A DNA stretch of 62,372 bases, the filler included, from Hausera hauseri (Eukaryota): the NCBI GenBank assembly GCA_046269625.1. It is 12 parts of 12 records of this genome, joined end to end, with 100 filler letters (N's around TTAATTAATTAA, not from the genome) between each part and the next. Parts side by side here need not be neighbours in the genome. Positions count along the whole stretch, not along the records: positions 1 to 5,142 come from JBJURY010323161.1; 11 more parts are not named here. The stretch is one strand, 5' to 3'. The notes under the pieces are model-generated. The model was given only the letters and a program-made list of their open reading frames with translations. It searched no databases and had not been told where the DNA came from. The position numbers and the translations under genes were made by a program. Positions 1-35,279 of the stretch are shown here, one piece after another (position 1 is the stretch's first letter; each line of letters starts with the position of its first letter).

Positions 1-1336
1 TACAATTATCCAAACACAAAATGATATTATAATTCAAAATCTCATTCACGATGATTTAGCAACGTTACAAAGTCGTTTACAGGGTCTGGCTACATTCAAA
101 AATATCGAAGCGGAATATAAAAATTGACAAGAAACAGCACGAGCGACAATTGATAGGAAAGTTCTCAATTTTCCAATGAAATGCGCCGATACTCATTTGG
201 GTAATCGAACAATTTCCTGTCGGCGAACTCATGACATTTCCTTGAAACGTAAATTGACGATATTCAATCCAGATCGACACCAACCAGACAGAAAGAAATT
301 GAATATTTTCGAGAGATCTGAAGAATTGAAACAACAATAAATCTCCAATCCTTCCAAACAAGAAGAAACAACTAGTGCATGGATCAGACCGAAGTGTAGA
401 TCAATAAAAAATTTCGCAAACTCTACACGCAATCTGGTTCAAAGCCGAACACTGTCGCGATCTCAGATCAATCAGAGATCGAAGTTTTGATTTCGTCATC
501 CCGTGTTTGAACTGATCAATCTTTCCTATCTACAAAAGCTCTTCCTTTCAATCAATCATCACTGATTACGTCAGACTACTATTCATCCGACATTCACTTC
601 GGTGTCATTTTAGCCCGAAATCGTTCCTATTCCTATTGGCCAAACACCGCCAGAACGAACTGAAGTCAAGTCACCAGTCAAGGAAACATCGACATTCATC
701 ACTGATACCAGTCGCCAGTTTGTGCCTGACAGTGAATCACCATCGACTATTGTAAAAACTGGTTCACCCGAACGGACTGTTACAAAGATATCTCCATGAA
801 CGTCATCATCTTTAATAGCTTTTGTTAACATAAAAAAATCTGTAGAAACAACGGAGACTCCAATAGTCACTATTAATCAAGGCAGGTCTGCTGATTTGGT
901 AAGTCCAGCAACGGCAATGAGTTGTTGATGATGCGCCGTGGTGGCGGGTAAACATCCACTAATCAAATGGTACCGTGTAGTTCAACAGTAACTATCGCTG
1001 CGACAGACCACATTTTCACCAATCAAATTCTCAAGCCGTTGAAGAGCCAAACACCCCTCTCTAATATACCAAATAAATTTGACTCTCCGCCATCGTACAA
1101 TTATTTCGGCTTCACCACAGTTCTGCAATACAATTCCTACGAAATCGCTGCAAATCAGCCATCCAACCTTTTGTCATCTACAAAACACATCGCAGTAAAA
1201 CAGGTAAGAAATCGGTTACCCCGAAATTTGGGACCCGCCGCGGCGAAGCTGGGGTCCCGGCCGCCCACTCTGTGCCATTGGGTCAGACAGCGCTTTCGTT
1301 GCCGCCCCACAGCAAGCCCCCGGGCATATTACATCT

Positions 1337-1550
1337 CCCTACTTTATCTTTCTTTTTTTAAATAACAAATATATATACATACGAAGCATTACACTTACAT
1401 GCTGCAGCCATTCATAACTTCATCTCTACCTTAACCCACTCCTTTGATTTCAACCTCACATACAATGGATCTGTAGTGCCTTTCGCTGAACCCCTCCAAC
1501 CTTCTACAACTTCCGTCTGCATTCACATTCACATCCGTATTCGTGGTGGC
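1337..1550 (+). pseudogene. Ubiquitin-like domain ending RIRGG directly before the Gag Met
   Basis: YFIFLFLNNK/(frameshift in AT run)/EALHLHAAAIHNFISTLTHSFDFNLTYNGSVVPFAEPLQPSTTSVCIHIHIRIRGG-M; aligns with 34117..34332. Confidence 0.7.
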
Positions 1551-2628
1551 ATGGATTCGTCACCCACAATTGATACCACAGACTAACTCACCATAAAACA
1601 AATCCGCAGCATTCACTAATCCAAACAAAGTGCTTCAAAAACCCCTACACAACACATCCTCCTCACCCATTCGCCCTGCACCAAATACTTCCTCGACAGC
1701 CAAAACTTTACTCAAGCTTGGCTAAAACTGCACCAATTTTGGCTCCATTCACAAAATGTCGTCGACTCTATCCAAAGCCAACAGCCTCTTTTTCCACTTA
1801 CCACCTTCCATTAAAACTAAAATTACCAATATCATCGATATCCTTCATCATACCGACCCATATACTAAACTTTACAATGCCGTTCTGAAGCTTACTGAGC
1901 CTTCAATCGATTCAATCATTCAAAGGTTCTTCAACGATAACGCCATGGGCCTTCAGAAACCTACTGAATTCTTACGCACATCCTTATCTCACCTCAACAT
2001 CCTTGGCGTAATATCTGAGCATAGTCCAGAACTTATTTGACGCTATTTTTTAAATACATTACCCCTTCAAATAAGAGCTTTGCTTACCGTGGTCGAGGAC
2101 TCCACGGCCCTGGACAAGCTAGCCGAACTGGCGGACGAAGCATATAAAGTACTACACTCCCATACAGCACCAACTGTCTTTGCAGCATTAACAACAGATC
2201 TACAACAACAAAATGCAACGCTGCAGCAACAAATTGCTCAATTACGCACGGAAAATAAAAAGTTGCAGAAAACAATTAACAATAGAAATGAAAAATTAAA
2301 CGAATTAACGCTGCCTTGAAGGAGTTTTTCTAGGGCCGCTTCCCCAAATGTATTCAATCAACGTCAAAGACGGTCGCCTTCGCCCGTGCGGTCATCTATT
2401 TGCTATTATCATAGCTAATTTGGTAACAATGCTCAGACATGCTACATCGGTTGCAAATTTTATTCCCATGATTTTAATACAAGCAACATTGTTCGCATCT
2501 ATCAATCAAAATTTGGCACAAAAGCATAATAATGCCTACCTGGCTGTACATACAACACACACAATAAAACCAACACTACTAATTTCACACAGCACAGTAA
2601 AACAAACTCACCAGCTACAAAAAACTGA
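1551..2628 (+). pseudogene. gag: gag (DUF7041-type capsid, coiled coil, two CxxH-x-FG-x-A-x-C-x-C knuckles), interrupted
   Basis: ORF pieces 1756..2040 and 2080..2319; ICYYHS*FGNNAQTCYIGC and IYQSKFGTKA**CLPGC; ends ACA AAA AAC TGA. Confidence 0.85.
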
Positions 2629-2660
2629 TTTCGCCGCTAGAACAGACGGCAAGTCCTAGC
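2619..2660 (+). promoter_or_regulatory. -1 ribosomal frameshift signal: A AAA AAC heptamer plus H-type pseudoknot
   Basis: Gag frame AAA AAC TGA; -1 frame KKLISP...FLIDTGA; stems GCCG/CGGC and CTAG/CTAG; covaries with the copy at 32987..33028. Confidence 0.8.
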
Positions 2661-5142
2661 AAAGGCAACAACCTGCAAAAACATAGCCAACACATTTCAT
2701 TTTCTGTATTCACATTGGAAGCAGCAATCGACACTCCAACAAAGCAAAGTATTAACTTTCTCATCGACACCGGCGCAGTAATCTCTCTACAGCCAACAAC
2801 ATAACACATCCAAAACAATTACACTTCACGAAAGCAACTGTTCACTGCGTGCGGTGAACCTTTACAAATTTTTGGAGTTACCAATTTAACATTCTCTCTT
2901 CCACACATCCCAAACACATTCACACGAAAATTTACAGTAGCCAACGTACGCAAACCTATATTGGGTCCAAACTTTCTGTCCCACTACAATTTACTTGAAG
3001 ATTGCAAACGATGTTCGTTAAAGTCGGAAATAATCTTAATGAAATTAGCAGAATTTCGGTGACCACCCGGGTGATCGCTTCCAACAAGTCAATACTGAAG
3101 CAAGCGACTTTCGATTTAAATTATTTTTACAATCATACATTATACAGAAATTTTTACTACAGTGACAAGTACGATATTGCCGGCTGCGTACACGATCTTC
3201 AACACGAACATCATGCACCAAATACCACCTAGTCACAGTACTTTGTCTACAACTCATACCGAAACTGCATCCAGTTACGATGCATCGACACCATCTGAAA
3301 ATTTTTTATGGTGGCCTTCTGATTTAAAGAAATACATTGCGTCTTCCTGCACGCGTCTGTTGCAAAAGGATAAATCATTCGGACTACCTCAATCCACTTT
3401 CCATAACATAGTAACAGCACATCAAAGACCAATACTTAAAAAGGTCCGTCCCCTATCGCCTCGTCGCAGACAGGCAGTGGAGGCTGAGTTTCTCTAACTG
3501 GAAAGATCAGGAATAATCAGAAGATCCAAATCCACGCGGTCTTCACCACTGCATGTGGTTCAAAAAAAAGTTGGCACTTTTTGCCCATGCGATGATTACC
3601 GCCAACTCAACATCATAACAACCATGGATGTTTATCCTCTACCATTAATCACAATATCCTTCAGAGGCTCCATGGTTCGACCATCTTTTCCTGCATTGAT
3701 TTGCGCAAAGCATACCACAAAATTCCGGTGGCCCCAGCAAACATTCCGAAAACGGCTTTTATTACACCTTTTGGCCTTGTCAAATACCTTTTCATACCTT
3801 TTGGACTCCGTAGCGCTTCTCAGACCTTCCAAAGGCACATTGATACAGTCCTATCAGGTTTAAACTTTGCTTATCCCTATATCGATGATATCTTAATTGC
3901 ATCATCCTCCTCGAAACAACACTCCAAACACTTACGTTTGATCTTTCATCGCTTTCACCAAAACAAGTGGCAAATTAATGTCTCCAAATGCTCTTTTTTC
4001 AACATAAGGTCAACTTCCTAGAAAAATATTATTAGCTGTTCCGGACATTCATCTCAGCCAGACCGCATCACACAGCTCAAAAACATACAGCTACCATGTA
4101 CATCAACAGAGATGCGTTCTTTTCTCGGAACCTTGCACTTCATTTATAAGTATGTTCCACACTTTTCCACTCTAACCGCTCCATTTGCTTCATTAAGCTC
4201 TGGCAAGAAGAAATAGCCTATTCAATGGACAGCCAAGCTAGTCAACGTTTTCGATCACCTCAAAGACAATTTAAAATGGTAGAAATCCTGGTCTATCCAG
4301 ACTCCTATGCAGAACTCTTCTTAACCACGGACGCATCTACAACAGCTGCAAGTGCTGTTCTCCATCAAGTTAAAAATGAATCCCATGAGCTATTGGAATT
4401 CTTTTTTCGAAAATGCACAGCACAAGAGCAAAGATATTCCACCTTTGACCGAGAGTTGTTTGCAATGGTCATTGCCGTAAAACACTTTAAACATTAGGTA
4501 ACCGCACAAACTTTTACAACACAAACGGACCACAAACCGTTGCTTCAAATTTTTACCATGAAATCGCCTTTTCCACATCAGGAGAGGCAAATAATGTATT
4601 TATCAACGTTTAATTTTGTAATCAAGCACCTAAACGGAGTCAGAAACTTAGTAGCTGACTTTTTGTCCCGATTGGTCAGCTCGATTGATTTCACACCAAT
4701 TTTTCCTCAGTCCAAACTTCAACAAAACCAGCCACCGTCTGATATCCTTAAATCTTTTAAATCGTGCAAAACCATCGATGGTGTGACCTTTGACACTTCC
4801 AAACCTAATAATCCTAAAGTCATCCTTTCTGAATCGCTTCAAGAAAAAGCATTCAACAACATTAATTCGTTGCATCATCCCGGTGCCAAGGCCACTTTNN
4901 NNNNNNNNGACAGTGTGTGGCATGCCAAAAATACAAAGTTACTAAGCACCTAAAGACAACTTTATTTCATTTTCCCTGCACGTTTTGTTTCGAATCTGTT
5001 TACATTGACTTTGTAGACCCATTACTCTTAAACAACGACCATCAGTTCATCCTCACAATTATGGACCGTTCCTCGCGATGGCCAGAGGCTGTCCCGCTTC
5101 GGAGCACCAACACAGAAACAATCGCAGACATCTTTATCCGCA
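2619..5142 (+). pseudogene. pol: pol (PR-RT-RNase H-integrase), interrupted, truncated by contig end
   Basis: LIDTGA; AYPYIDDILI; LTTDAS; HHPG..C..CQ zinc motif; IDFV, MDRSSRWPEAVP. Confidence 0.9.
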
Positions 5143-5242: not shown

Positions 5243-5332
5243 CAATTAAGCACCCCTATAAGTCAACGATTAACGAAGGAACGGCACGAAGAACAAACAC
5301 AGTCAGATGATGGATATTCTACTTTAGTACAC

Positions 5333-5704
5333 ATGATGATGGAACATAGAAACCAGAATACACCTCACGAATGCTCCGATCATTTACAAAAGAGACTACC
5401 GTATCCAAATCAAAGAGAGGATTGGAAAGCTATTAGTTCTACATATATACCTCCACCGAAAAAAGGGAAATATAGCTGCCCCAAAGAAATATTACGAAAA
5501 AACTACGCTGACACTGAAGAATGGGGAAAGTTGCCAGAGCCATTAAAGGAAGCAGTGAAAGAATTAAACGAGAATGGTTGTGAATGGGAACCATATAAAA
5601 CTAATAAATGCATAGCACCAGAGCTAATAAAGGTAATACGAGAGGATATCAATTTGATACCAAGGCAAACGACACATGAGACGAAGACGATTTTAATTAT
5701 TTAA
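5333..5704 (+). CDS. Hypothetical ORF fragment, unassigned; abuts the BEL/Pao remnant
   Basis: 123-aa open frame, no recognised motif. Confidence 0.25.
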   Translation: MMMEHRNQNTPHECSDHLQKRLPYPNQREDWKAISSTYIPPPKKGKYSCPKEILRKNYADTEEWGKLPEPLKEAVKELNENGCEWEPYKTNKCIAPELIKVIREDINLIPRQTTHETKTILII

Positions 5705-8245
5705 TTAATTTCCATGTTGTCTCACCAAGTGTAGTACGTCCATATTGTCGCTCCAATAACACAACTTCTTGTTGTCGTACTCTAATGCCGTCGAAATCTT
5801 CTGTCCTACTTTTACTCCTGTCACAGCAGCTAGTAACTCCAATCGCGGTACTGAAACAACTTTTGTTAGTGATATTTTACTTTTTGCTACTATTATATTG
5901 CTAGTTTTTTTATCCCCTGTGATGACCAAGTAAGCGACGGCTCCATAAGCATCCTTGGACGCATCACAGAATATATGTGTTTCATATGGTGACTGATCGA
6001 CTATTAGTACACGTTTTATTTGAACTTTATCTAAATCTTGTTGTTCCGATACCCATTCTTTCGCTTGCTTGATTAAGTGGTCTGGGAGTTGTTCGTCCCA
6101 GTCTGCGCCATGCATCCACATCTCTTAAATAATCAATTTTCCTTTCATTAAATAACTACTGAGAAACCCTAATGGATCAAATATTCTAGCTACTAAGCTC
6201 AAAATTTTTATTTTTCTAGTAATTTCTTCTGATTGGGCTCTTTTATAGAAGAAGAATACATCACTATTAGCGTTTCAACGCATACCTAGAGTTTTCGTCT
6301 TCGTCTCCTCATGTACAATCTGGTAACACGCAGATCTTTCATCTTCCGGTATAATTTCTCGTAATCTCTCGGAATTTGAGACCCATTTTCTTGCTGACAT
6401 ACTGGCCTAACTCCACAACAATTTTAGATCACGGTACATTTTTACTGCCTCCTCTTCTGTCTTAACAGACATCAAGCTGTCATCCATGTATGTCGCGTTT
6501 TTAACAACCCATGCCGCTTCAGGCACACACTCTGTGTGTTTCTTAGCGTTTACACGACTTACTAATTGTGCTAGGTATGACGATGTATTCAGTCCAAATA
6601 CTAATCTTTGGAATTCATAGACTTTCTCGATATTTCCTTCCTTCCAGAGAAATCTTAAGTATCTTCGATCTTCCTGTGCCACTCCAATCTGTAGAAACAT
6701 TTCTGTAATATCACATACCATTGCAATTTCGTATTTTCTAAACCTGATTAATATATCTTCTAAATCTAATTGCAACTTTGGTCCTTGGTGGATCATATCA
6801 TTCAGACTAAGACCCATACTTTTTGAGGCTGCGTCGAACACTATTCTAATTTTTGTCGTTTCTGCATCTCTTCTTACAACCGGAAAATGTGGTAGAATCC
6901 ATCCTGTCGTATTGGCTTCCAGTTCTTCTGTGACGCTCTTAATACACCCCTTCCTTTCGTGCTTGTCTATTTGGTTCTGGTACCCTTCCTTCAAATTCAA
7001 ACCCTTTTCTAATTTATTTTCTAACAGCGGTAACCGTCTCCTAGCAACTCTATTATTATCTGGCAACTCTTGTGGGTTTCCGTTCCATGGAATTTTGACC
7101 TCATACCTGTTGTTTACATATTTCATATCTCCCTGGGATTTCTGCATTATCTTCTCTTCTTCCTCTGTCCACTGTTGGCTCTTTTCTAACATATCTTCTA
7201 GCCTCTATAGCTGCTCTAAATCATCCTTTAATTCTGCTTCGCTTGAGAGGAAACATCTAATAAAGTTAGATCGCTTCTGAAATGGTCTGGTTGTTGATAT
7301 TGGTCCGATACAGGTCCACCCTAGTGGTGTTAATTGAGCCACGGGTTTTCCTTCCTTCCCGGATATTTCTTTGATTGCTCGGTGAAGCTGATTATAATTT
7401 ACTCCTATTAAACCCTCAACTTTCCCTGACTTCATCACATTTGGGAAAGGTATTCCCCTTAAATGGTTCCATTTGTTTCCTGATATATTCCAATTGGTCG
7501 CGTTTAAATTACCTACGACGTTTTAGATTGTCAGTGCTGAGACCTTCACTTCTAAGTTTCTATTTAAACTACAAAGGTGAAATTCGACCCTTGCTGCGCT
7601 TCTCCTCCTTTTCTCACCAAGTAAGACCTCTAACGAAATCGATTCTGGTTCTTGTTCTAAAAGCAACCTTTCTGCTACCGAAGTACTAATGTAACTGTCA
7701 GTGCTAGCATCATCTAGTAAAACATTGATCTTTTCTTCATATTTCCCGTTGCGTACAATCACTGGAATGGTTTTCAGCGAAACTTCATCTTGCTCTTCTG
7801 TGCTATGTCTTCCTGTTACATAACTCTTGTTTTGATCATTCTTAAACTTTTCTGATTCATTCGAACTTCTCTCACTTCCACTTTGGGAGGATTCTCGTAA
7901 CTTTCCCGGATTAATGCTATCTGACGTATGTCTTCGATTACTAGTTCGTCCAACTTGCTTTTCACTCTTCTGTGAGTCTGACTCTGTAGTTTCATGCGCG
8001 AACTGACATTTATCGTCGTTTCTGCAGTTCCCTTGTTGGTAATACCTGCATATCTTCTTATTTTCGCCCTCTTCTTCATTACTTCCATGGGGATATTTGC
8101 ATTTCTTCCCGAAAGTGCAATTCCCCTTTGCGAACGCCCAACATGCTCCTTTAACAATTGGCATTTTCTCCTTGACTTCTGTGAAGTGGTTATAATGCTT
8201 ATTTACTATTTTCTCTTCCGAACCATGATTTTGAAATGTTTATAA
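5705..8245 (-). mobile_element. BEL/Pao LTR retrotransposon fragment (gag C-term, PR, RT, RNase H), decayed
   Basis: LLDDASTDSYI protease; TPLGWTCIGP; LPHFPVVRRDAETTKIRIVFDAAS...GPKLQ...YMDD RT; HIFCDASKDAYGAVAY...VPRLELLAA RNase H. Confidence 0.95.
7994..8143 (-). CDS. Tandem CCCH (C-x7-C-x5-C-x3-H) zinc fingers in the BEL/Pao polyprotein
   Basis: CWAFAKGNCTFGKKCKYPH and CRYYQQGNCRNDDKCQFAH, in frame with the protease in ORF 7523..8164. Confidence 0.9.
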
Positions 8246-8264
8246 TCGGATTCAATTTACGTGC

Positions 8265-8640
8265 TGTGAAATATATCTTTAATAAATGTGATGTGTACTG
8301 TTTAATAAAATTGTGATGTATTCACTGTTAAGTCACTGACCCATCGAAATCGACACTTTGAAAACTTTCGAAATCGACCGCCACATTGTGGTGCAAGAAA
8401 CGCAGGGACACAGGATCTTTAGATACAGATTGGATTAAAACACCATTTAGAACCGGAACAAACAGTGAGTATGATTGATTATTCTATATCTTTTATTGCT
8501 TTGAATTAGTGTAAAACATGTCTGCAGAATTAGATCATTTGAAAGGAAGACGAACCTCGATTAGCGGGCAAAGGACGAAGTTGTGCAAAAAAATTGAAAA
8601 CGTAATAGAATATAAGATAAATGACCCTACATGGGATAAA
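8265..8640 (+). mobile_element. Probable 5' end of a second BEL/Pao-like element: LTR end, PBS, gag start
   Basis: AATAAA x2, ...CCACA at 8385, TGGTGCAAGAAACGCAGGGA (8389..8408; resembles tRNA-Phe PBS TGGTGCCGAAACCCGGGA), ORF MSAELDHLKGRRTSISGQRTKL. Confidence 0.55.
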
Positions 8641-9036
8641 CATTTAAATCCCCAATTTAACCAAAATAATGAAAGCACTTATAATGATTATTATAATCTG
8701 TCATTTGATGTTTCCAGCAAATGAAATTAACTTTACAGTTTTTTTTCTTACTTGGATAAAGTATTGGATAAATATTAATTAATGATTAAAAAGTATTGTT
8801 ATAAATGTGGGGTAATCAAATTCAGTCATAAACAGAAAATAACATACACCTTTTACAGAAATGCCTACAACATAATCACATTTGCTTATTTAATGAAACA
8901 AAAATTAACAACTAGCAAACATATCCACAGACCCACTATAAATCTTCGATGGCGAATTCTGTTTATATGTTTAGTAACATATCACAAGATAAATTAGATT
9001 AAACACTGACTGCCAAATACATTTCAAAGTGCATTT

Positions 9037-9131
9037 ACACACACAAACACACACACACACGCGCGAGCGCGCGCGCGAACGCACCCACGCACGCACCCAC
9101 GCACACACAATGTTTACTAAACACACACACA
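9037..9131. repeat. Compound (CA)n/(CG)n/(CACG)n microsatellite
   Basis: Directly visible. Confidence 0.9.
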
Positions 9132-9260
9132 TACAAATCAAATTGCATATAGGCATCCACGTGCAAATCGAATTTTCACGTTTATTTACCAAACGAACCT
9201 AGACACAAATTATGTATAATAAACTTTAAGCATACACAGACAATGCACGCATTTCATATA

Positions 9261-9360: not shown

Positions 9361-9380
9361 ATATTTTTTATTTTGCTGTT

Positions 9381-11140
9381 ATCAATCAAACTTTTTATTC
9401 AGCCAATACTAGGTCCATAATAAACAAGAACAAACAACAAAACAACAACAAAACACATTAAAAATAGAATGTTCATCCATTGCCATATAAATTAAGGCGC
9501 CAGTGATTCCACAGACTAGAGAAGAACCTAACCGAGCTTTGTACGGGGTTGGTCAGAGTATAAATGATGTTATTTACAGAGTCTGTTAGCCTACACATAC
9601 ATCTGTACATGAGGTTTCGAAGCACAGCAGCACAAGTTGGTACGTTGGCATTTACAAACATCTGACTGGCACTGCTCCATCGCGGCACCTTAAGCAGCAT
9701 CCTCAGGCCATCATTGTACGCCACCTGAAGTTTATGCATACTGCTTTTTCTGTAATGCCGCCACAGGTGGGCAGTATACATTGGAGTACAGTATGCTTTA
9801 AAAAGTACAGTTTTTACAGATGTTGAGCACATAGAGAACTTCCGAAGAAGCATATTAGCTTGTGCATATTGCATACAACGCTGCCTGTAAATGTCCCTAT
9901 CATCAGACAGGTCAGCGGTCATGTAATGTCCCAAATATTTCACCTCATCACTGACTTGGAGGATGCTGCCAGACAGAGTGAAGTCAGGGAAAGATAATTT
10001 TGTGTCCTCTTTGCTCCTGACAATCATGATGTTACTCTTTCTCGCATTATATTTGATGTCAAAATTCAATCCATACTGAGAGCAAACCCTTAACAGTTGC
10101 TGCAGACCAGCGCTATATGGACAAAAGATTACCAGATCATCAGCATACATCAGATGGTTGATGGTTCTATTGCCAACCCGACAGCCTGTCCTACATTGAT
10201 TCAACAGCTTAGATAAATCATCCATATACACATTAAAAAGGCAAGGAGACAAAATGCTGCCTTGTCGCACACCATTACTCACATAAAAAGAAGATGATAC
10301 AAATGTTCCCCATTTTACAGACATAGACTGGTGAGCATACCAATACACTAAAATTCTTAATAAATATTTCGGAACTCCTCTATTGTACAATTTATAAAAC
10401 AATTTTTCATGATTGACACGATCAAATGCTTTTGAGGCATCAATGAAACACATAAAAATTGTGGTATTATGCCTGTTGTATAAATCCAAGATCTCCTTGA
10501 GAGCAAAAATGCACATATCAGTGCCATGGTTTGGTTTGAAGCCAAACTGGTTATCAGATGTGAGAATAAACTTCTCTAATCTATTAAGCATAGCCCTCTC
10601 CAAGACCTTCGATAAAGTACTGGCCAGAGCTATAGGTCGATAATTGTCTTTGCTATTTATTTTGCCAGCCTTATTTTTTACAACAGGCACTAAAATCACT
10701 GACAATATAGAGTTTGGTAAAATGCCATGAATTAAAAACCCAGTGAAACAAATAGCTAGCAAGGGAAAAACTTTTCTGCTTGCAAACTTTAAGTGCTCTG
10801 CAGATATCTTATCTGCCCCACATGCCTTACTATTTTTCAGCTTCATAACAATATCACTAACTTCTTGTGCAGAAATAGTGACATCTTCATGTTTGTCTAT
10901 GTTGTCTATAACGAAGGGATTACTTTTGCTACAATTAAACAGTTCATGATAATGTTCCTTCCATAACTGAATAATTTGGTCTGGTCCGTTTGCACCATCG
11001 ATGTTTGTTGGCAAGGATGTTTTTAGATTATTGATTCTTTTAATTTCTTTCCAAAATTCAGTAGGACTGTTATGTTGTAATTTCCTTGCAAGTGACTCCG
11101 ATTTAAGCATGTTTTCATTCCTCTTAATAAATCATAGAAC
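9381..11140 (-). mobile_element. 5'-truncated non-LTR retrotransposon (LINE, RTE-X-like)
   Basis: RT ORF plus 3' UTR with AATAAA and short (TTGA)n tail. Confidence 0.88.
9473..11110 (-). CDS. LINE reverse transcriptase domain, uninterrupted 545 aa
   Basis: NYRPIAL, QFGFK, DASKAFD, GVRQGSILSP, YADD, KYLGH; C-terminal LFKAYCTPMY as in RTE-X-like elements. Confidence 0.95.
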   Translation of the reverse strand: MLKSESLARKLQHNSPTEFWKEIKRINNLKTSLPTNIDGANGPDQIIQLWKEHYHELFNCSKSNPFVIDNIDKHEDVTISAQEVSDIVMKLKNSKACGADKISAEHLKFASRKVFPLLAICFTGFLIHGILPNSILSVILVPVVKNKAGKINSKDNYRPIALASTLSKVLERAMLNRLEKFILTSDNQFGFKPNHGTDMCIFALKEILDLYNRHNTTIFMCFIDASKAFDRVNHEKLFYKLYNRGVPKYLLRILVYWYAHQSMSVKWGTFVSSSFYVSNGVRQGSILSPCLFNVYMDDLSKLLNQCRTGCRVGNRTINHLMYADDLVIFCPYSAGLQQLLRVCSQYGLNFDIKYNARKSNIMIVRSKEDTKLSFPDFTLSGSILQVSDEVKYLGHYMTADLSDDRDIYRQRCMQYAQANMLLRKFSMCSTSVKTVLFKAYCTPMYTAHLWRHYRKSSMHKLQVAYNDGLRMLLKVPRWSSASQMFVNANVPTCAAVLRNLMYRCMCRLTDSVNNIIYTLTNPVQSSVRFFSSLWNHWRLNLYGNG

Positions 11141-11144
11141 ATGT

Positions 11145-11484
11145 GGGCGGCTGTGGCGGAGTGGTTAAAGGAATCGTCCTGGAACCGGAAGGTCACCGGT
11201 TCGATCCCCGTTCCAGCCGTCTCAGTCGTTGTGTCCTTGGGCAAGACACTTCACCTGCCTTGCCTACTGATGGTGGTCAGAGGGTCCGGTGGCGCCGGTG
11301 CATGGCAGCCCCACCTCTGTCAGTGCGCCCCAGGGCAGCTGTGGCTACAATGTAGTTTGCCATCATCAGTGTGTGAATGTGTGTGTGAATGGGTGAATGT
11401 CTGTAAGTGTAAAGCGCTTTGGGGGTCCGGAGGGACCTGATTAAAGCGCTATATAAGTTCAGTCCATTTACCATTTACCATTTA
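11145..11484 (+). mobile_element. tRNA-derived CORE-SINE resembling the teleost AFC family, apparently full length
   Basis: A box TGGCGGAGTGG (11154), B box GGTTCGATCCC (11198), CORE-like GTGTCCTTGGGCAAGACACTTCACC, GTAAAGCGCTTTG...AAAGCGCTATA tail, (CCATTTA)3 end. Confidence 0.88.
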
Positions 11485-11759
11485 TTTAAAAGCTAAAAGT
11501 ACAGTATGTTGCTAAAGCAAAATTGTGAGCCTTGAAGTAATATAACTCCACTGGAACCAAAATTGATGATTTTTTGAATGATTTATTGTCATGATGAAAA
11601 TTTTGGGCCATCTTATTGTGACATAATACTCCATCTGTTTGGCGAACATAAACATTTTCATAGCGTATAAGTTTCAAGGTCATTCACTGTGCTTGTTGAA
11701 TAGCACCCGATTTCATAAAACTAATACCCGTGGTGGCGTTGCCCTCAATATCATCAAAA

Positions 11760-13300
11760 CGTACTCAGCACATTCACGATAGTCATCTAGTGTAAATTTG
11801 TTCGTAGAACTGCCTGACAGAAGTATAGTAAATTCTTCGATTACGCGTGTTTTCAGTTCAATCAGTCAATGATTGTCGAACTGTAACATTTCAACAGGAG
11901 CTTGAAGGTCAAAATGGCCCCATGATTTTTTTTAATTTGGCTAACAGGTTATTATCTGGTTCAACAACCTTGCCAATCAGAAGTTTCCATATAGCACCTG
12001 AGAGTAATTCCAGGATATGGTGCCGACAAGGTAAGTATAACAATTTTTTTCCAATTTTATCTTCAAGTAGCTTGCTGGCCATCTTTTTATACCACTGTTT
12101 CTGGCTGTGGTGTCAAACACTAGCACTGTAATGTTGGGTAAAATTTCCCACAACTCGAGTAAATGAATTGTTGCTTCAGTCTGTTGCATTACGGTTGGTA
12201 TGATTACAATCTTCCTTTAGTGTAATCAGGAGCCCCTGACACAACAGCAAGGCGTTCACTGGCTGCACCAAGGTGATTCTTTATCAGTTTTCTAACCCAG
12301 TGGAGGGCAGCAAAGCAAGTCGGATTTTCTTTGAACAAGTGAGCAATGTCTTCTGCGATTTGTAGCCTATTAGCCATTCGTTTTCGGCGAGTGGTCTGCC
12401 TTGATATGTCAAAGTCTTTGAGATTGCCATTACCAGCTTTAATTACTGCAAAAAACAACCTTGTTGTTAGATTGTCGGACAGCATGAATCTGTTTGCTGA
12501 ATTTATGGTGGCATCTCACTCCATTATCTTTCTTGGTAGGTTGGTCTTTGCGTATCCCGTTTTTCTCATCTTACACGCTATGAGAATGAACTCGACATCA
12601 TCTTGTGTATCACTTTCCTCCTCTGATTCTTTCACTTCTTGACTATCAATGACTATACCCAATCTTCGTATTTCCATCTCATTCACAGACTGCATTTACA
12701 AAGCTTTCTGTCTCATTTCTTTACTTTCAGACTTACTTCGAAATATCTTGTCATGACTGGATATTGTTGTTGCCCTTTCACTTTTCTGGTCCAAATAGAA
12801 GTTCACATCTTCTCTTTTTTCTCTTTTGACAGCAAGCGACATTTCAATATTTCATCTATAAAATCTGGTGCCCCAATATCAAACGGTTTATCCAGTTTTA
12901 AAACGAAATTTGCTCCTTTTCCACCGGGATCTCTTTCGCGTTTTCTATTCTTTGTCAAACTGTCCCATTCTCGCCAAAGATTCATTACAGATATCATACA
13001 GTTTTGTCGTGTTTTCATTTGATGCGCGCCATCTGCCAAAATACAGCAACACTGTCCATGACTTCATATGCCAATTCTTTATTTGAAACTTGTGACATTA
13101 TCTGGCTCATGTCGAAGATAAAAGAATTTTAAAACATGTTTATTGGTTGGTAGCTTAGATCAACTTATTGATGATGATGGCTGCCCATTTAACCAGAAAT
13201 CGTTCATTGCTTTGGTTAGTGGCTGACGAGATGATGATGATGTAGATGTTGAAGTTGATGATGAAGGAACACATTTTTTCTGTAGTATCCGATTATGACG
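11760..13300 (-). mobile_element. Decayed DNA transposase, Sola2-like
   Basis: KLPTNKHVL...FWQMARI...LDKPFDIG, ALHW(D>V)xKL, VFDTTARNSG, CRHHILEL motifs across frameshifts. Confidence 0.65.
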
Positions 13301-13320
13301 AAGCAGCAATAACTGAAGTT

Positions 13321-17486: not shown

Positions 17487-20400
17487 GAGAAGTCCACGGA
17501 TGATGACGTAGCAGAAAAAGAATTTATAAAACCATTAATACTTAAAATTACGAAAAATAGATGCCGTAGCCCTTTCTTAAAAACGAGACGTAGAAGTCGT
17601 TCAAGCTGCAAAATAACTAGAGAGAAAATCGAAAAAAAACATCCGAATATCGTTGTAGAGAGTAACGTAGACCATAATTTAAATACACCGGACATTGGTT
17701 CACTCACACCTGTCGGAGTAGCGGAGTCTATAAAACCAGTTAATGAAATTAACGAGATTTGTCCACTTCCCATTGGTGAGGAAGAAACAGAGAATACGGA
17801 GGATTTCGACCCAAAAAAGTGGAAAGTCCGGCGTTCGTGGAAAAACGCCGATGAGTTAAAGAAAACAAGAATTAGATGTTATAAACCAGAATTATTGCAA
17901 CGAAATTTAAAAAGGCTCAAGCAAATCCGTGAACAAGTAGACATATCCGGAAAAGAACAACAGTATGCGGAGAGACTATATAAATGCCTAAAACTATACG
18001 GTGAAGGTAAGCTCGCAGAAGCAATCGACTTAGAACAACCAGAAGAGGTATCAACCGAAACGTTGTTAAAATGGAAGCAGGAATTAGAATCCTGGATTAA
18101 AAGCGGAGTAGAATTTTCGGAAAGATGGAATAAAAATGAAGATAGAGTCGACATAAAAGTCACCAAGGCTCAGACGCTATTGTCTGCTTTGGAGGCAAAC
18201 CCAAAATTGAAGAGAGTGGCCCGAAACTTAGAACGTATGATAAACGAAATTCGTTACGCAGTGATCAACCGGCTTAGGCAAAACCGGTTAACCATCGCAG
18301 TAAGATCGATTTAGAAATATTGGATATAGACCCATTGGATATTCCTCCCTTAACGGAGATAATAAAAATCGCATTTGCTACGCCCAAACAATATACAAGC
18401 CTAGAAAATCAAATTAAGACAGAAAATGAAAAGCGAGCTCAGATTTATAGCTTCAGGAATCAAATCATGTCCCCAAATCATAAGGAGACTCAATATCTAA
18501 TAAAAGCTTGTATCGTAGAGTTGGATGATTAAAAGGACGAGTTTAGTTATGTCGGCCGGATTATGAACTTCGTAAAGGACCGGACGATGAGTTAGAAGAT
18601 GCATATAAGATGCTAGATAAGGCTATACTGGCCAAGCCAGTTATCGCAAATCAATTGTCGGAATGGTCCGAATTAGTAACGCGATTAAGCTGGCTTGTAG
18701 AAGATCGGAAAAAGGAATTTCCGCAAAGCGAGCCAATGGTAAGGAAGCAATTAAAAGAAAGTGCACATGATTTAGGCACTATGCGAATAGAAATAGACAT
18801 CCGTACTCAATTTGAAGCGCAAAGACGACTAAAATTTATGGAAAATGAACGAGAAGAGTTGATATTGGAGGAGATCTAAAAACTGATTGAGGAGACGAAT
18901 TTTACGGAAAAGCAAAATATGATTTACTATGTGAACTCAAGGTTAAGGGTTGTTCGACTAGAAAGAGTCCAATATTTAACGGGAAAACCGATCGACAAAA
19001 TCATTGGCCAAGACATTAAAATCTTGGACATTTGTTTAGGACATCGAGATACGTTAACGGACGCAATAAAATTCTTTCACAAACCACAAGAATGGATGGC
19101 TGGATCAGATCAGAACTTCCATACCAAGTTGGCGAAAATATGGGACGATCCACATTTTAGTTTTCAGGAACACAAGTTCGTAAAAAAATTGTAGGTTCAA
19201 TGGACCCTGACTCAAAGGTTATAAATGAGATGTATTGGTGGAAATGGCAGAAATCAGTAAGAGAAGATGAGGCAATTGATTCCAAAGATACAGAAAGTAG
19301 AAAAAACATGTATCAAAACGAAACAGAGAGCGACAAGGTTAAACGAAATAACAAAAGTGCTTGAAGTCTACCCAAACAAATATGCTTTTACCGAGTCAGA
19401 AATCAAGAATAAAGGAGAATTTGTACAGAAATGGCAAAAAGATGTAGTCATTTAATTAACAAATTATCACCAGAAGGGACTCATCAACTCTAACGAATTC
19501 GGAGAATTACTGAAAATGACTCAATATGACTGTGGAAATGAAGTAGGGTTCCGAACTACGCAGATGAAGGAAATACAACCCAGGTTGAAAAAATTCGAGA
19601 AAATGTGCAAAGAACAAGTGTAGCCTTAGTAGGCGTTGGACTCCCAGATGTCGGTAATGAGACAGAATGGGATGCATACTTCGACGCAATGCTGATCAAA
19701 AGCCCATGACTCCAGTACAACTGAATGAGATAGAAACTAGCCCACGGAACAGAAGATTCAATGTGGAGATGCTACTAGATTCACCGCTAACTGAAAAAGA
19801 TTTGATTCAATTAATTAACATAAATATTACTGAAAATAAATTAAGACAACTTATTCCAATTTTAACTAAATTATCTAGTGAGAACACAATTTATAGCACG
19901 ATGCCAAAACTTTTGATAAAAAAATCTGCTAAAATATTAAGGACTAAACTGGAAGTAACGATGAAAGTAATGATATCATCCGAGTGGATGGATGAAAAAG
20001 AATGTGAATTAACTACATATTCCTATGTAACAGATGTGAGAGAATGGTTGTTAAACAATAATGGAACAAACGAACTAAATTACAGATTTTACTTTAGAGG
20101 TAGAATACTCGACGACCTAGAACAGCTAATAGATGTCGGGATTATTCCCGACGAAACAAACCGGATAGTAGCAATAATAGCTAACGAACAGACAAAAGAA
20201 GAAGCCATACGTAAGGCCAAAGCGGAACAATGCATAGGACAAATTATGGGAGTCCGCGATTCTGCAATGTATTTTGAGTACTTACAAACGGATGAGGATA
20301 AGGAACAATATGACATAAATTTAGTACCACTGAGCGAAATAACATCAAAAAGGCCGAGGCCAAAAGGTCCAATCGGTAGGCCTAAGAAAACGCGAGAAGA

Positions 20401-20898
20401 AATGGACTATAATGGAGAACTGATTACAGAATTAAGACAGATGTCGATTCCGACCCTTAGTACAGATAATGAAAAAGTAACCAAATTAATGAAGAATTTA
20501 ATACGAATCGTGAATTACTCCAGTCTTCGAGGTGATGTATTAGATGATAAAGAAAAAAATAATATTCGATGCAGCCAAAATGATGCGAAGCTCACGTTTC
20601 AAACTATCAAAAAGTAACCCAACCGATGAATCGGTAATCGAAAAGATTATGATAGAGAACACCAGCGAAGAATTGAGAAATGTATTATTATACATAGCTA
20701 TCAAAATAAATCCTAACCGAGAGAGTGAAATCAATAGAGCTATAAGCTTGGCACGAAAAGCAGCAAGAAGAATGCTTTGTGAAGTAAATTGGGCAAGACT
20801 GTTTGACAGGGAAGAAGATAGGCGGACCAGTAATAAATTCGACGATATATTACGTAATTTAACAACGACGGATGTTGGCCACCGGAAAAATGAGTCAA
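17487..20898 (+). pseudogene. Large helical/coiled-coil ORF1 (>1100 codons, interrupted) with an internal UBL and AT-hook-like motif
   Basis: Chain of ORF pieces 17895..20993; no canonical Gag motif recognised. Confidence 0.55.
19949..20182 (+). CDS. Integral ubiquitin-like domain (no terminal GG)
   Basis: LEVTMKV...YVTDVREWL...NYRFYFRGRILDDLEQLIDVGI...IVAII matches the beta-grasp pattern (RLIFxGKxLxDxxTLxDxGI). Confidence 0.7.
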
Positions 20899-22760: not shown

Positions 22761-23419
22761 GTCACGTTGGATATCATAACCGTAAACGAAGGAGAAGACC
22801 TATATTTCTGCGTAAGCGGAAATCTATAAAGCATATTACACGAAGAAATAACTCAGACGATGACGAGCCTAAGGGAGGAGAAGCACTTCCAGGAATAAAG
22901 AGACACAAGATGTATTCGGTCATTAAGGCGCCATTGCCCATGCTACCTCCTACTGCTCCATTCTATGATGATTGCGACAAACGATCCATGAATTCATATC
23001 AGACGGACATTTATAAAATAACAATTAATGTAGAAGATCCTTATGAAGGAACGAAACGTTACGGAATCTTATGGAAAATGTGTTATCGACAATCCACAGA
23101 CGGCCCAAAGATGTTGTATTCTCCGAGAGAACCTCGGAACATAGAAACTAAATGAACGGTTTCGGAAAATCCAAGATTAAAATCTTTCCAGAATACTGAA
23201 TTACACATTAACAATCGAGAACCATTAATTAGCACACACGAAGCGGAAGAGTTGCACATAGAAAATAACAAATTATATTCAAACGAAGAATTAAGACAGC
23301 TATCGGAGAACATAGTATCCTCCCCCGAGATCCGAATCAACGGACACAAAATATCGGCGGTGAAACGCTCGAAAGATACATCAAACTGTTTTGGAACAGT
23401 AATAGAAGGAAGATCCTTC

Positions 23420-25781: not shown

Positions 25782-25785
25782 TAAA

Positions 25786-30702: not shown

Positions 30703-32986
30703 CAGGATGATGTAACGAATGTACATTATAAAATGCTTGTTTATGTAAAGATGGAGCAAGAATTATTTTGTATTGTCCTCGTTTGGAAGTATCTAAGGCC
30801 ACGCCGTCGATTATCTGATGAGATTTGAACGCTTTGAGAATATCTTGCGATGGCTGATTTTCCTGGAGCTTTGTCTGAGTGAAGATTGGCGAAAAATTGA
30901 TCGAACCGACTGATCTGGATAGGAAATCGGAATCTAGATTGTCAACAACCTCAATATGTTTGATGGCAAAAGTTGAATGTGGACAAATATGAACTTTGCC
31001 GTTCTTGTCGAGTTGAAGGGTGTTTCATTGCCATTATATTAATCAACGGCTTGTGATCAGTCTGTACAACAAAATAGCGGGCTGTAAGTAAATGAGAAAA
31101 ATGTCTTAAAGCGAGGACTATTTCCAAAATTTCCCTATCGAAAGTTCAATATCTAGTTTCTAGTGGCGTTAATTTTCGGGAAAAGAATTCTACAGGTTGA
31201 TTTTCTCCTTTGTACAACTTGTGTAATACAGCACCTACTGCGATGTTTGATGCATCTGTAATTAAAATTAACTTGACGTCAGGTTTAGGAAATGCTAAAA
31301 TTTCGACAGTCTTTAGTTTTTCTTGTAGTCTATCGAATTTATTGACTAGCTGTGGTGACCATACGATTTTCCGGTGTTTTTTCCACCGCTTAAATGTGCA
31401 AAAGGTGCCTTGAGTTCCGAACAATATGGTATATATTTGTGGACGAAATGCCCGGTACCGAGAAAACTGCGAATTTCTGTTGTTGTCTTGGGTAGTTGGA
31501 CATTTTTAAGGGACTCGACTCGATCAGGCTGAGGTGAATGGCCGTTTGAAGAGATAATGTGTCCGAGGAAATTAACGCGCTTTTAAAAGAAGTTACATTT
31601 CGCGAAATTGATCTGCAGGTTGAACTGGTTAAGTCGTTTGAAAATGGATCGTATGTGTTCCTCGTGTTGTTTAACTGATGAAGAGGCAACCAAGATATCG
31701 TCAATATATGGATGCGCAAAGGTTAAATCTGAAAGTATTGAATCGATGTGTCGGTGAAAAGTCTGCGCGGCATTCTGGATTCCGAAAGGCATATACAAGT
31801 ACTCATAAAGACCGAAAGGTGTGGTAACTGCAGCTTTCTCGATATCTTCCGGTGCGACAGGAATTTGGTGGTAAGGTTTGGCTAAATCGATTGTCGAATA
31901 AACTGAAGTAGTATTAAGCCGATGTAATATGTCTTTGATTAATGGCAGTGGATATGCGTCCACTGTGATTAAAGTATTAAGTTGGCGGTAATCGCCGCAT
32001 GGTCGGAAGGATCCATCTGCAACGTGGAGAGGCGAAGACCATGGTGATTTAGATCTGCGGACGATACCTGATTTTTTGAGTTCCATAAATTCAGCTTCTA
32101 TTGCCTTTATGCGTCGCGGTGACAATGGACAGACCTTTTATCTAATTGGCCTTTGATGTCTTGTAATTATATGGTGGTAAATGCTGTTTACTGGAGTGAA
32201 ATCCCTATCTTTCTGAAGTATACGAGGACAAGAAGTATGGACGAATTGTTGTAAACTTGCGGGTAGTTGTTGGAATATTATAACTGACGATGAACCGAGG
32301 TTGCTAGCAATACTTGGTATATGGTGATTGGTTACTGATGAGGAATCAAGTGGAGTTTGGAGTAGGATGGTCGGGTCCGGAACCGTGTTTGTGTAGGTGT
32401 TATTGTTCAATGATTTTACGGAAAATACCATATTGTCGGTGTAGATATTGAGCTTTGATTGGCTGTCGACATTGTCCTTTGGAAGCTTACAATGTAAAAC
32501 GTGATATTTATTGAAATTAGAACGGGGTATTGACCGTTTTAAAATAGATTGCTTACTTACTGTTGACTGTGGTGTCGTTGGGATGTTGTCTATACCTGTG
32601 CTACAGTCTACAGGTGTATTCGCTTTCAGGCAGCGTCGGTTACAATCGACTAGCTAATTATAGTGCAAAAGGAAATCTGAGCCAAGTATTGCCGTCTGGA
32701 CGTTAACGACTGTAAACATCCAATGAAGTGAATAGGAAAAGTTTGGTAGAGTGAAAGCTAATTTGCAAGTTCCGGAAATACGGAGAAATTGATCAGATGC
32801 AGTGCATAAAGGTTTTATTTTAGGTGAAGAATGCTGAACAGGAAAAGAAAGTGGTAGTAGTGAGATCGCTGCGCCAGTATCTATGAGAAAATCTACGGAT
32901 TGAATATTATAATTAGAGATAGCAGCTTTTAGTGTGAAGATTGCAAATGAAGTGTGTCGGCAAAAGAAACTAGACAAGTTGCCTTT

Positions 32987-33028
32987 GCCAGGATCTGCCG
33001 ATAATACTGGCGGCGAAATCAGTTTTTT
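32987..33028 (-). promoter_or_regulatory. -1 frameshift heptamer AAAAAAC plus pseudoknot
   Basis: AAAAAAC TGA TTTC GCCG CCAG TATTAT CGGC AGATC CTGG; same spacing as 2619..2660. Confidence 0.8.
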
Positions 33029-34116
33029 GGATTGGTGAGTTAGAACGGTTACTGTTAGAGACATTGGGACGTCTATCAGTGGTATAGTTTTTGTTAGTTT
33101 TATAGATACAGCCGGAAATACAATTCAGAGCATTAGATCCGAATTTTGCATGATAGATGCAAATTATGTTATCTGAGGGTAGATTCGATGAATAATATCT
33201 ACACCGTAAACAGCATTTATTTGCTTTGTTGTTAAATTTGTTGTGGTAATAACATATGAATGACCGCGTTGGTGACGGTGTTCGATTTCTGGAAGGAGAA
33301 CGTGTTCGATGAGGGAGGGAGCATTCCGTCAATATAAAGAAAGGTCATTCAGCTTATCATTGATGGTGTTGATTGTGTGTTGGAGAGCCGCATTTTCGGC
33401 GCGTAATTGGTTCATTTGGTGTTCGATGGATGTATGTCGTTGATTGTCATCGGTCGTAATAGCGGCTAATATGATGGGTTGTGATTGGATTGTAAGACTT
33501 CGTGTGCTTTATCTGCCAATTCAGCCAGTTTACATAAGGCTGTAGAATTTTCAAAAACGGTAAGTAAAGCCCTAATTTGAATGGGTAAGGCATTAAGGAA
33601 ATATCATCGAAGTAGATCTGGTTTATGTTCCTTGGTGACGCCTAAAGTACGTAAGTGAACCAAAAAGGTGCGTAGGAAATCACTTGGTTTTTGTGTCCCC
33701 ATTGCGTTTTCGTCAAAGAACCGTTGAATTATAGAGTCAATTGTTGGTTCTGTTAGTTTTAATACAGCATCGAACAATTGGGTATAAGGGTCAGAGTGTT
33801 GAAATATGTTCAATAAGTTATGTATTGAGGCCTTTGTAGAGTTTGGTAGAAGATAGAGTAGATTATGGGCTTTGGATAACAAGTCTGTGATACCATTGGA
33901 CTGTAACCAGAGTTGATGGAAGTGGAGCCAGGTTTTGCTAGACTTCTCATTGTCTATAAAATATTCAGAGCAATGTGGTGAAGTACTGATAGGATTTTTG
34001 TGAGAAAAATTTGTATCGGTTGAAGTAGGTGAATGGCTTGATTTGGGATGGTAGAGAATGAACTTGGGTTTTGTGGTCACCTTATCAGTGGTGTCACTGG
34101 TTGGTTGAGAAATCAT

Positions 34117-34332
34117 ACCGCCGCGGATTCTAGAATTGATATGTATACATAGATAGTTATGTGAAGCCATGATGCGTTGGAGGTCGGTTAAAATAAAACC
34201 GTTATGAGTCAGATAAAAATCACTGAAGACAGAGGTATTATAAATGATACCGTATAGTTGTGATGTTTCGATACGTTGTCTGACATGTACAATTTGTATT
34301 AGATTATTATGAACATAAAGGTAGAAGGGGAA
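34117..34332 (-). CDS. 72-aa ubiquitin-like domain ending RIRGG, in frame with gag
   Basis: FPFYLYVHNNLIQIVHVRQRIETSQLYGIIYNTSVFSDFYLTHNGFILTDLQRIMASHNYLCIHINSRIRGG|MISQP. Confidence 0.75.
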
Positions 34333-34713
34333 TGATAATGATGTACTGTAAACCGGGTAGTGTGATATATCGATGTGGTCATTCGAAGGTAAGAGAGTTG
34401 CTGTTTCTTTTAAAAAATATGTCCGGCCTGTGGACTCACTATGGTTAATGGATCTATTGAGCTTATAATCGATGCGTACTGAAAAATATCGACAATAACT
34501 AGAAGGGGACGGATTCTGTCCATAATCAGAAGCTCTAGCAAGGTACTCCCTNNNNNNNNNNGGGCCGACTTTACAATAACTTGCGTTACTTCTACCTCTT
34601 CTCATTACAGATTCATCGAATTTCATATATGATTCGTTGTCGAATTTTGTAGGTTTGGCAAGACAAAGTACGGGTGATATACAATTAGCAATGCCGCGAC
34701 CTGACTGGGCTAT

Positions 34714-35235
34714 TTTATTAATTTCTACGTGGCCATCATTGAATTCACGCATTCCTACGAGAGTCAAACACCTCCGAACGTAAAAGTATAGTTTACCAAT
34801 TTTGTCCAATGAAGCTAATTTAAATTTCAATGTAGAATAAGTAACTTTGTCAACAATAGCAAGATATCTTGAAAAACGATGTCGTGGACAAAGAATAAAG
34901 TGAAACAACTGTTGAATAGAATACACGAAATTTATGATCTGAGGAATAAAAAAAAGAAGTGTTTTGCTGAAATGGCCTAGAATTGCAACGAAGGTAAAAG
35001 TGGTGTTGAAATAATTGCAAAATGTATCACCAACGAACGCCTTTGCTGGATATCGATTGTATTAAAAAAAACCGAGGCAACAGAAAACGTACGGAATCAT
35101 AAAAATCAAAGAGAAAAGATTATTCTGCCGAGACGGACCGGTAACAAATGCAATAAAATTGAAGCAAGAAATAGACCCTGCAATAACCGAAGTTTGGTCA
35201 ACTTCTATTCCATTAATACCTGCGTAAATATTGAT
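34714..35235 (-). pseudogene. DPAGT1: Intronless fragment of UDP-GlcNAc:dolichyl-phosphate GlcNAc-1-P transferase
   Basis: INIYAGINGIE..Q, NRYPAKAFVGDTFC, ILGHFSKTLL, FIPQIINFVYSIQQLFHFILCPRHR are DPAGT1/ALG7 signature motifs; one stop plus indels. Confidence 0.9.
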
Positions 35236-35279
35236 GGGAAGTAGTAGGAAGGGAGCGCATGACCCCACCCCCCCCCCAT

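Follow-up and report, generated by a model that had tools for sequence, protein, structure and literature searches.

Two retrotransposon remnants in the window

The window, that is, the whole stretch of 62,372 nucleotides of Hausera hauseri DNA analysed here (assembly GCA_046269625.1), is a chain of contigs of 4-7 kb, and adjacency across the spacers between them is without meaning. Each spacer has 100 bases, in which a six-frame stop of 12 bases is flanked by 44 N on either side. Two contigs carry the retrotransposon remnants listed in Table 1: element A lies in the contig 1-5142 and element B on the minus strand of the contig 30703-35279. Both contigs stop inside pol, with N spacers at 5143 (A) and 30702 (B). 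A DTGA protease, a YIDD reverse transcriptase (RT) and the Pfam domains RVT_1 and RT_RNaseH follow each other in gag-pol order in both elements, and the integrase part can be aligned between them by tblastx. Judged from the Gag knuckle and the domain order, A and B are decayed Ty3/Gypsy elements of the CsRn1 type. The first-pass annotation had regarded A as a second divergent copy of one element. By sequence comparison, A and B are instead separate, distant families, about 60% identical in Gag and RT (63% in the Gag block, 60% in RT) and saturated at synonymous sites.

In front of Gag, both elements encode a putative ubiquitin-like domain (UBL), giving the in-frame layout of UBL, Gly-Gly, flexible linker, capsid and CHCC knuckles. 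The UBLs of A and B are only 33% identical, against about 60% for Gag and RT, and neither contains a lysine. The UBL of A is broken by a single stop at 1359-1361.

Table 1. Features of elements A and B and of the DNA upstream of them, in window positions
Feature	Position	Strand	Evidence or remark
A: primer-binding-site-like 11-mer (tRNA-Trp type)	1213..1223	+	2 mismatches in 11
A: predicted ubiquitin-like domain	1338..1550	+	Profile built without window sequences, E 2e-4
A: RIRGG tail and ATG, predicted cleavage junction	1536..1553	+	Sequence
A: linker and Gag	1551..2454	+	Broken by stops and frameshifts
A: DUF7041-like capsid part	1726-2037	+	Pfam DUF7041 E 6e-4, under the curated cut-off
A: CHCC knuckle CX2HX9CX3C	2401-2454	+	One match, stop inside
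A: pol remnant	2619..4881	+	Pfam RVT_1 E 1e-23, RT_RNaseH_2 E 1e-18; motifs; tblastx with B
A: pol parts	Protease DTGA 2766; RT YIDD 3878; RNase H 4150-4494; probable integrase start	+	
Intronless DPAGT1 (ALG7) host-gene fragment	34729..35277	-	phmmer to solved DPAGT1, E 2e-27
B: stop-free stretch in the UBL frame, DPAGT1 fragment to UBL	34336..34728	-	10-N gap 34552-34561
B: predicted ubiquitin-like domain, ending in RIRGG (34131-34117)	34117..34347	-	Stop-free; AlphaFold, fold matches, profile, synonymous excess
B: Gag (ATG 34116, disordered linker of about 47 aa, capsid helices)	33108..34116	-	Broken from 33606 on
B: two CHCC knuckles CX2HX9CX3C	From 33254 and 33161	-	
B: pol remnant	30703..33124	-	Pfam, motifs
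B: pol parts	Protease DTGA 32881; RT YIDD 31708; RNase H 31505-31146	-	

Other contigs hold unrelated features. A second, unrelated ubiquitin-like stretch without Gly-Gly lies at 19961-20200 (+; Pfam ubiquitin E 0.04). The later ORFs of the contig 17487-23816 have no Pfam hit and presumably resemble a viral glycoprotein. The layout of this contig recalls the giant Gypsy element Burro as far as the available text of PMC6431247 describes it. At 57471-62372 (-), a MATH/TRAF domain (Pfam E 1e-27) stands upstream of a retroviral-type protease (E 3e-4) and an RT-like piece, an arrangement that is also Burro-like and would point to a flatworm as host. Integrase (rve E 2e-7), capsid-like and DNA-polymerase-B-like ORFs occur in 23917-30602, 46813-51549, 51650-57370 and 38780-40060, and we take them to resemble Polinton/adintovirus elements; 27296-30599 and 46815-50152 are 81% identical. 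The contig 9361-13320, which may come from another organism, has an intact-looking non-LTR RT ORF (11131-9473, Pfam E 6e-41) and beside it, at 11138-11440, a tRNA-derived-SINE-like stretch that we assume to resemble fish repeats. At 5243-9260 (-) lies what remains of a Bel/Pao-like gag-pol, with two CCCH zinc fingers encoded in the ORF 8239-7523.

Predicted fold of the domain and its likeness to ubiquitin

The AlphaFold model of B computed with 12 sequences (pLDDT about 80) has the order strand-strand-helix-strand-helix-strand, with strands at residues 6-12, 15-22, 44-48 and 66-72 and helices at 28-38 and 56-62. The Gly-Gly at 76-77 is located just past the last strand, and a disordered linker (76-122) leads to the capsid helices. 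A model from the single B sequence (pLDDT 54, all-beta, resembling protease-like barrels with Z up to 6.0) was of low confidence and was set aside. When we compared the B model with 48,161 solved chains by VIA-align, PB1 domains matched best (Z 10.2, rmsd 2.1, 72 residues aligned; further PB1 domains at 9.9 and 9.7), followed by the UBLs of midnolin (Z 9.1, rmsd 2.2, 73 aligned) and BAG6 (Z 9.0). SUMO, FAT10, ISG15, ubiquitin and Fubi gave Z 8.0-8.7 (ISG15 8.5; Fubi 8.0, rmsd 2.2, 67 aligned). Overall, the beta-grasp matches had Z 8-10 and rmsd 1.7-2.7 over about 70 residues, and the capsid helices of B matched PEG10 and dArc1 (Z 8.4 and 8.3) and copia capsids. Beta-grasp proteins also head the Foldseek list, with rmsd 2.5-3.0 and a TM, normalised by target length, of up to 0.72; none of its matches had an E below 0.001. 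Judging by the model, the UBL very probably adopts the beta-grasp fold. The best ESM Atlas values, 0.78 for the UBL and 0.84 for UBL-Gag (DUF7041), were taken as leads only.

The sequence likeness to ubiquitin is weak. Structural alignments with ubiquitin and its kin gave 7-20% identity, and the UBLs of A and B alone found no match in Pfam, in a PDB sequence search or with a two-sequence profile. Among the relatives described below, the best score against the Pfam ubiquitin family PF00240 was 21.6 bits (P0015, E 2e-4), under the curated cut-off of 25.4 bits. With a profile of the family, 32 of 37 PDB rows were ubiquitin entries aligned end to end; these entries are near-copies of one protein and the best E-values sum polyubiquitin repeats, the best single-copy ubiquitin entry having E 0.022. 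After removal of the last five residues, the family profile no longer told 96 ubiquitins from shuffles, and the hhalign probability fell from 46 to 0.1. Against a profile made from the 96 distinct ubiquitins of 121 viral loci, the window UBLs scored 0.8 and 3.3 bits, nearly all of it owed to the tail. The resemblance resides mostly in the tail. In the profile register, the position of ubiquitin Ile44 is Thr in both A and B, and that of Lys48 is Ser and Phe. The domain is a predicted beta-grasp with a ubiquitin-type tail, standing outside the Pfam ubiquitin family.

Codon pattern and protein-level constraint

RIRGG is followed by ATG in both elements. It reads CGT ATT CGT GGT GGC at 1536-1550 (+) in A, with the ATG at 1551, and AGA ATC CGC GGC GGT at 34131-34117 (-) in B, with the ATG at 34116. 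The first-pass annotation correctly stated that all five codons differ and that DFxLTxNG and CIHI are common to both copies, and it argued from there for purifying selection on the protein. By itself, the five-codon argument is weak. As 210 of the 370 identical gag-pol residues also use different codons in A and B, five synonymous differences in the tail are expected at this distance (P 0.06 for five of five, or 0.11 counting R/I/G only).

The alignment as a whole is more informative than the tail. The stop-free stretches of A and B aligned locally with a score of 83, whereas the best of 5000 shuffles scored 57; without RIRGG the score was 59, still reached by none of the 5000 shuffles (maximum 57). 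In an ungapped block of 52 codons, 17 residues are the same in A and B, and for 16 of these the codons differ. Codon positions 1, 2 and 3 agree in 23/52, 35/52 and 13/52 codons, a contrast with a Fisher P of 3e-5 (8e-4 if the tail is omitted). With the register that maximises protein identity, there are 17 identities where shuffles reach at most 15, and only two of 3000 codon shuffles reached the gap between positions 2 and 3 when the register was freely chosen. The ratio dN/dS had been proposed as a measure of constraint; with pN 0.41 and pS 0.99, no finite value is obtained because dS is saturated between A and B, whereas the codon pattern does show constraint.

Family B is also carried by one public sequencing run (X1), which we aligned with an identity floor of 80% and whose contigs are related rather than independent. 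Over 34095-34350, 194 contigs aligned, with no indels and 37 differences at a share of at least 12%. In the Gag frame, 20 of these 37 are synonymous, where 10.9 are expected from the same mutation spectrum (P 0.0005); for the 27 differences that vary between X1 contigs, the numbers are 15 and 8.1 (P 0.003). The other two frames have 7/37 and 8/37 synonymous differences, and no difference creates a stop. The UBL and leader have a smaller summed X1 depth than Gag, which faster divergence or domain-free copies could both cause.

The proposed selection on the protein ahead of the apparent Gag Met is thus supported by the codon positions in A and B, by the synonymous excess in X1 and by the shared domain and invariant Gly-Gly of the 12 relatives. 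That the UBL was translated and is not a 5' UTR, as the annotation had also held, we infer from this selection.

Relatives and the conserved Gly-Gly junction

A phmmer search with the UBL-Gag of B against 1.84 billion representative proteins gave 17 hits, two of which were excluded as not Gag (P0005, MBG repeats; P0014, LMBR1). The relatives are predicted proteins from ENA or JGI records, known as protein only. In 12 of the 15 Gag relatives, Gly-Gly is found roughly 20-50 residues ahead of the capsid start. P0016 and P0017 have no UBL and were counted as misses among the 15, and P0011 begins inside Gag and is uninformative in this respect. UBL-bearing hits were favoured because the query contained the UBL; the best-scoring stretch starts only after the UBL in five of the 12. 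Four of the 12 are predicted from a Met within the domain, which is partial there. A profile of the domain from which the window sequences had been kept out recovered B (E 8e-12) and A (E 2e-4), the window giving no further hit below E 0.1.

Together with A and B, the UBL is present in 14 Gag sequences at 20-60% identity. Gly-Gly occurs in all 14, while the glycine frequency in the rest of the domain is 3%, and G76-G77 are the sole invariant columns before the capsid in the 12-sequence alignment. The tail follows the pattern R/K/Q, L/I/A, variable, G, G; P5 is R/K in 13/14, P4 is L/I in 13/14 and P3 is R in 5/14. The R/K-L/I pair matches Arg72-Leu73 of ubiquitin (residue numbers from the available text of PMC10611586). 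The residue after Gly-Gly is M in six sequences, S in three, N in two, G in two and A in one. Because it varies, what is conserved is the junction and not a start codon: the ATG after Gly-Gly, from which the first-pass annotation took its apparent Gag Met, exists in A and B but is replaced by S, N, G or A in 8/14. Pro follows Gly-Gly in none of the 14 (P 0.09), which was not used as evidence. The UBLs of the relatives contain 0-7 lysines. Of the 12 representatives with a UBL, 9 have two CHCC knuckles, as B does.

The UBL is not general among CsRn1-like Gags. A metagenome scan covering 38 of 64 parts found three CsRn1-like DNA loci (L122-L124); these and P0017 have a Met-started Gag and no UBL. 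Word-based protein searches gave 0/1285 candidates with B and 2/8000 with the family profile, both known already; viral contigs gave three pattern matches, none related. On a Gag tree of 19 rows, built without P0011 and without P0018-P0020, which are cluster members, the 14 bearers need two changes, as few as in 5/500 shuffles. The branch has a support of 80/91, with P0016 nested inside on a long branch, and a single origin of the UBL seems plausible on this tree. P0016/P0024 is a Gag capsid fragment without UBL among the UBL-bearing Gags, joined to leucine-rich repeats.

Leader, start codon and upstream host-gene fragments

The homology reported between the two leaders (SPPSYNYF/SPSSYCRYF and LLSSTKHI/LLPSNDHI) did not survive comparison with shuffles, scoring 25 against a mean of 25.5 and being equalled by 2586 of 5000. 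The leader peptides of A are also in a frame different from that of the UBL and lie upstream of the primer-binding-site (PBS)-like site at 1213. This site was matched with the Trp-type motif, with a P of about 0.03 if the 190 nt ahead of the UBL are considered and 0.07 over 1550 nt; an exact match precedes gag in the control locus L123. No Trp-type PBS with under 3 mismatches was found in B, where the 10-N gap lies upstream. The PBS-like 11-mer stands at the start of the GC-rich stretch 1205-1325 of A, which is probably a post-PBS leader. An intron beginning at 1204 (CAG/GTAAGA) was considered and fits the stretch less well, though splicing may occur. The stretch folds no better than shuffles (z 0.77) and has no real Rfam match.

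The UBL frame of A is open from 1083 through the PBS-like site, bar the stop in the domain, and contains no ATG before 1551. No in-frame AUG opens the UBL in A or B, and the nearest upstream in-frame ATGs of B, at 34605 and 34626, are beyond the 10-N gap. A stop-free ORF runs from 35061 to 33604 (-) in B, and two X1 contigs span the gap with nine extra letters, so that the frame is kept across it. The upstream frame of B gave no sign of coding constraint in the 40 of 841 rows of X1 differences covered: 8/8 of those listed over 34415-34839 are non-synonymous, but as they are mostly private to the window copy they weigh little either way. In four relatives whose domain is complete, no Met lies within 95 residues of Gly-Gly, and blastp among 11 upstream sequences gave no match at E 0.05. 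In A and B, the ATG after Gly-Gly could serve as a direct start of Gag without the UBL. UBL-Gag may depend on non-AUG initiation or on splicing.

The DPAGT1 fragment lies directly upstream of B, in the same strand and frame as UBL-Gag, with a stop at 35064-35062. Its best relatives are 52-57% identical and come from invertebrate animals where named, which marks the host as an animal without close representation in the databases. It is covered by many X1 contigs, and because up to 32 of them differ at one position among the differences listed, it looks repeated; it may have been captured by element B or by another repeat. Some relatives are also headed by host-gene pieces, namely DIS3-like and CNOT1 in P0002/P0018 (Pfam E 1e-4 and 2e-18), HSP90 in P0009 (E 8e-10) and ARP8 in P0012 (E 1e-3). 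Either the elements captured these pieces or gene predictors joined them to UBL-Gag. P0002 and P0018 show no difference in the first 351 residues and 16 aligned differences thereafter.

Discussion

Retrotransposon Gag normally has its own AUG start and is trimmed by the protease of the element. For the elements described here, we consider it likely that the UBL is placed in front of Gag for a host deubiquitinase (DUB) to cut after Gly-Gly and release Gag. UBL-Gag would be translated as one precursor, which a host DUB or ULP would cut after Gly-Gly, as happens in the fusions of ubiquitin or Fubi with ribosomal proteins. The cut would give Gag a fixed N-terminus regardless of the leader peptide upstream. 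We see a purpose in this fixed end because in most members the UBL does not begin with an AUG and what lies upstream is unrelated from one member to the next. Ubiquitin and UBL fusions improve the expression or folding of ribosomal proteins, and the same benefit may add to the purpose here. Cleavage by the host enzyme is probably also the main role of the domain. With Thr at the Ile44 position and a variable P3, the host protease would have to accept a very diverged substrate.

A bolder extension, which we hold to be rather improbable, is that a captured ubiquitin acts as an N-terminal reset switch: translation would start far upstream, in the LTR or in captured host fragments such as DPAGT1 in B, and read through the primer site, and the DUB would then free Gag. 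If so, such elements could carry and express arbitrary host fragments in frame, and a lysine-poor ubiquitin mimic would be released in every Gag-making cell.

Release of Gag is compatible with a further idea, namely that the freed UBL is itself the point, being conjugated to host proteins or occupying host E1 or DUBs as a counter-defence or chain stopper. Arg72 is the residue that gates the ubiquitin E1, and its position is R/K in 13/14 sequences; the lysine-free UBLs of the window, with F or S at the Lys48 position, and the fast evolution of the domain (33% identity between A and B against about 60% in Gag and RT) would also suit such a function. The relatives, however, hold 0-7 lysines, so that the loss of lysines is no general feature; any shared target is hidden by the strong divergence of the surface, and the tail, the only part kept, is all that a cleavage signal needs. 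Although Fubi is reported in the available text of PMC10611586 to be conjugated to a few substrates, we regard this idea as unlikely, somewhat more so than the reset switch.

Still less probable is a beta-grasp that is never removed from Gag and works as a matrix-like module, a PB1-like polymerising one or an adaptor, with Gly-Gly as a hinge left from a captured ubiquitin. PB1 domains are not known to be cleaved, they head the structural list (Z 10.2, 9.9 and 9.7) and they score as high as or above true UBLs against the B model. Many uncleaved proteins have an N-terminal UBL, with BAG6, midnolin and parkin among the matches. Yet B lacks both marks of PB1 domains, the lysine in the first strand and the acidic cluster, and given the long disordered linker a hinge needs no exact Gly-Gly behind R-L, as found in 14/14.

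We give very little weight to the UBL as a degradation or dosage tag, by which uncut or slowly cut UBL-Gag would go to the proteasome and Gag started or cut at the junction would survive, limiting the copy number. Structurally, the neighbours of the domain include FAT10 and the UBL of midnolin at the proteasome, and an ATG right after Gly-Gly in 6/14 permits two products. The 8/14 members without the junction Met must make all their Gag through the UBL, however, and the window UBLs lack the lysines and the Ile44 residue that are used in degradation targeting. Finally, the reading of the stretch as an untranslated leader, with RIRGG a chance or RNA-level motif, could appeal to the absence of an in-frame AUG opening the UBL in A or B and of any X1 variant listed in 34095-34133, synonymous sites included (P 0.10 for the 15 tail bases), but it retains practically no probability, being refuted by the codon pattern (all five tail codons and 16 of the 17 identical residues of the block differ in codon, and the synonymous excess with P 0.0005 occurs in the Gag frame only) and by the UBL-GG of the 12 relatives.

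If Gag is indeed released by host cleavage, transposition would be tied to the host ubiquitin system, the host would gain a point of control, and the ubiquitin-fusion trick, otherwise seen in ribosomal proteins and in chance captures by pestiviruses, would have persisted in a mobile element through a long evolution. For UBL-bearing Gags, an annotation that begins at the first Met leaves out the real N-terminus.

In the open-licence literature, the scope of our search, we found no diglycine UBL before a retrotransposon Gag and no description, for retrotransposons, of a capsid protein released at Gly-Gly by a host enzyme, as is likely here. The word ubiquitin is absent from PMC12471100, PMC2577118 and PMC2582038, and for errantivirus Gag only a SUMO site is mentioned (PMC3383448). 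According to the available part of PMC2582038, the CHCC knuckle CX2HX9CX3C in Gag marks the CsRn1 clade (CsRn1, PwRn1, AgCR, Boudicca). A and B share this knuckle, and they are also like the clade in their DUF7041-like capsid and PR-RT-RH order and, for A, perhaps in the Trp-type PBS-like site. They and their relatives differ from the clade in the ubiquitin-fold domain and Gly-Gly before Gag, which ordinary CsRn1-like Gags (L122-L124) lack, and in the two CHCC knuckles of B and 9/12 UBL-bearing representatives. The nearest case is Burro/GYPSM1, a giant Gypsy of planarians, which has a ubiquitin/SUMO-like domain (PF11976) in a Gypsy-type polyprotein as well; as far as the available text of PMC6431247 goes, this Ubi2/SUMO-like domain is internal, whereas the UBL described here stands ahead of a CHCC Gag and has a conserved Gly-Gly as its end.

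The arrangement of a diglycine UBL ahead of a working protein is shared with FUBI-eS30 (FAU) and the ubiquitin-ribosomal fusions (PMC8354635 and PMC10611586, each in its available part). USP36 cuts FUBI-eS30, and a change of the diglycine blocks the cleavage (available text of PMC8354635). In our case, the passenger is a retrotransposon Gag and the cleavage is predicted. The A/B-type UBL is also far more diverged, with 7-20% identity to ubiquitin and its kin in structural alignments against 36% for Fubi, which only some human DUBs accept (available text of PMC10611586). Another parallel in function would be the cytopathogenic pestiviruses BVDV Osloss, CP1 and CP Rit, in which captured ubiquitin is a processing signal for host hydrolases. 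As laid out in the available text of PMC8310069, these enzymes make the authentic N-terminus of NS3 from ubiquitin-NS3, and the ubiquitin gives an exact N-terminus whatever precedes it, including the S27a fragment in CP Rit. The pestivirus captures described there are recent, nearly identical to ubiquitin and confined to single isolates, whereas the domain of UBL-Gag appears to be old, diverged and lineage-wide.
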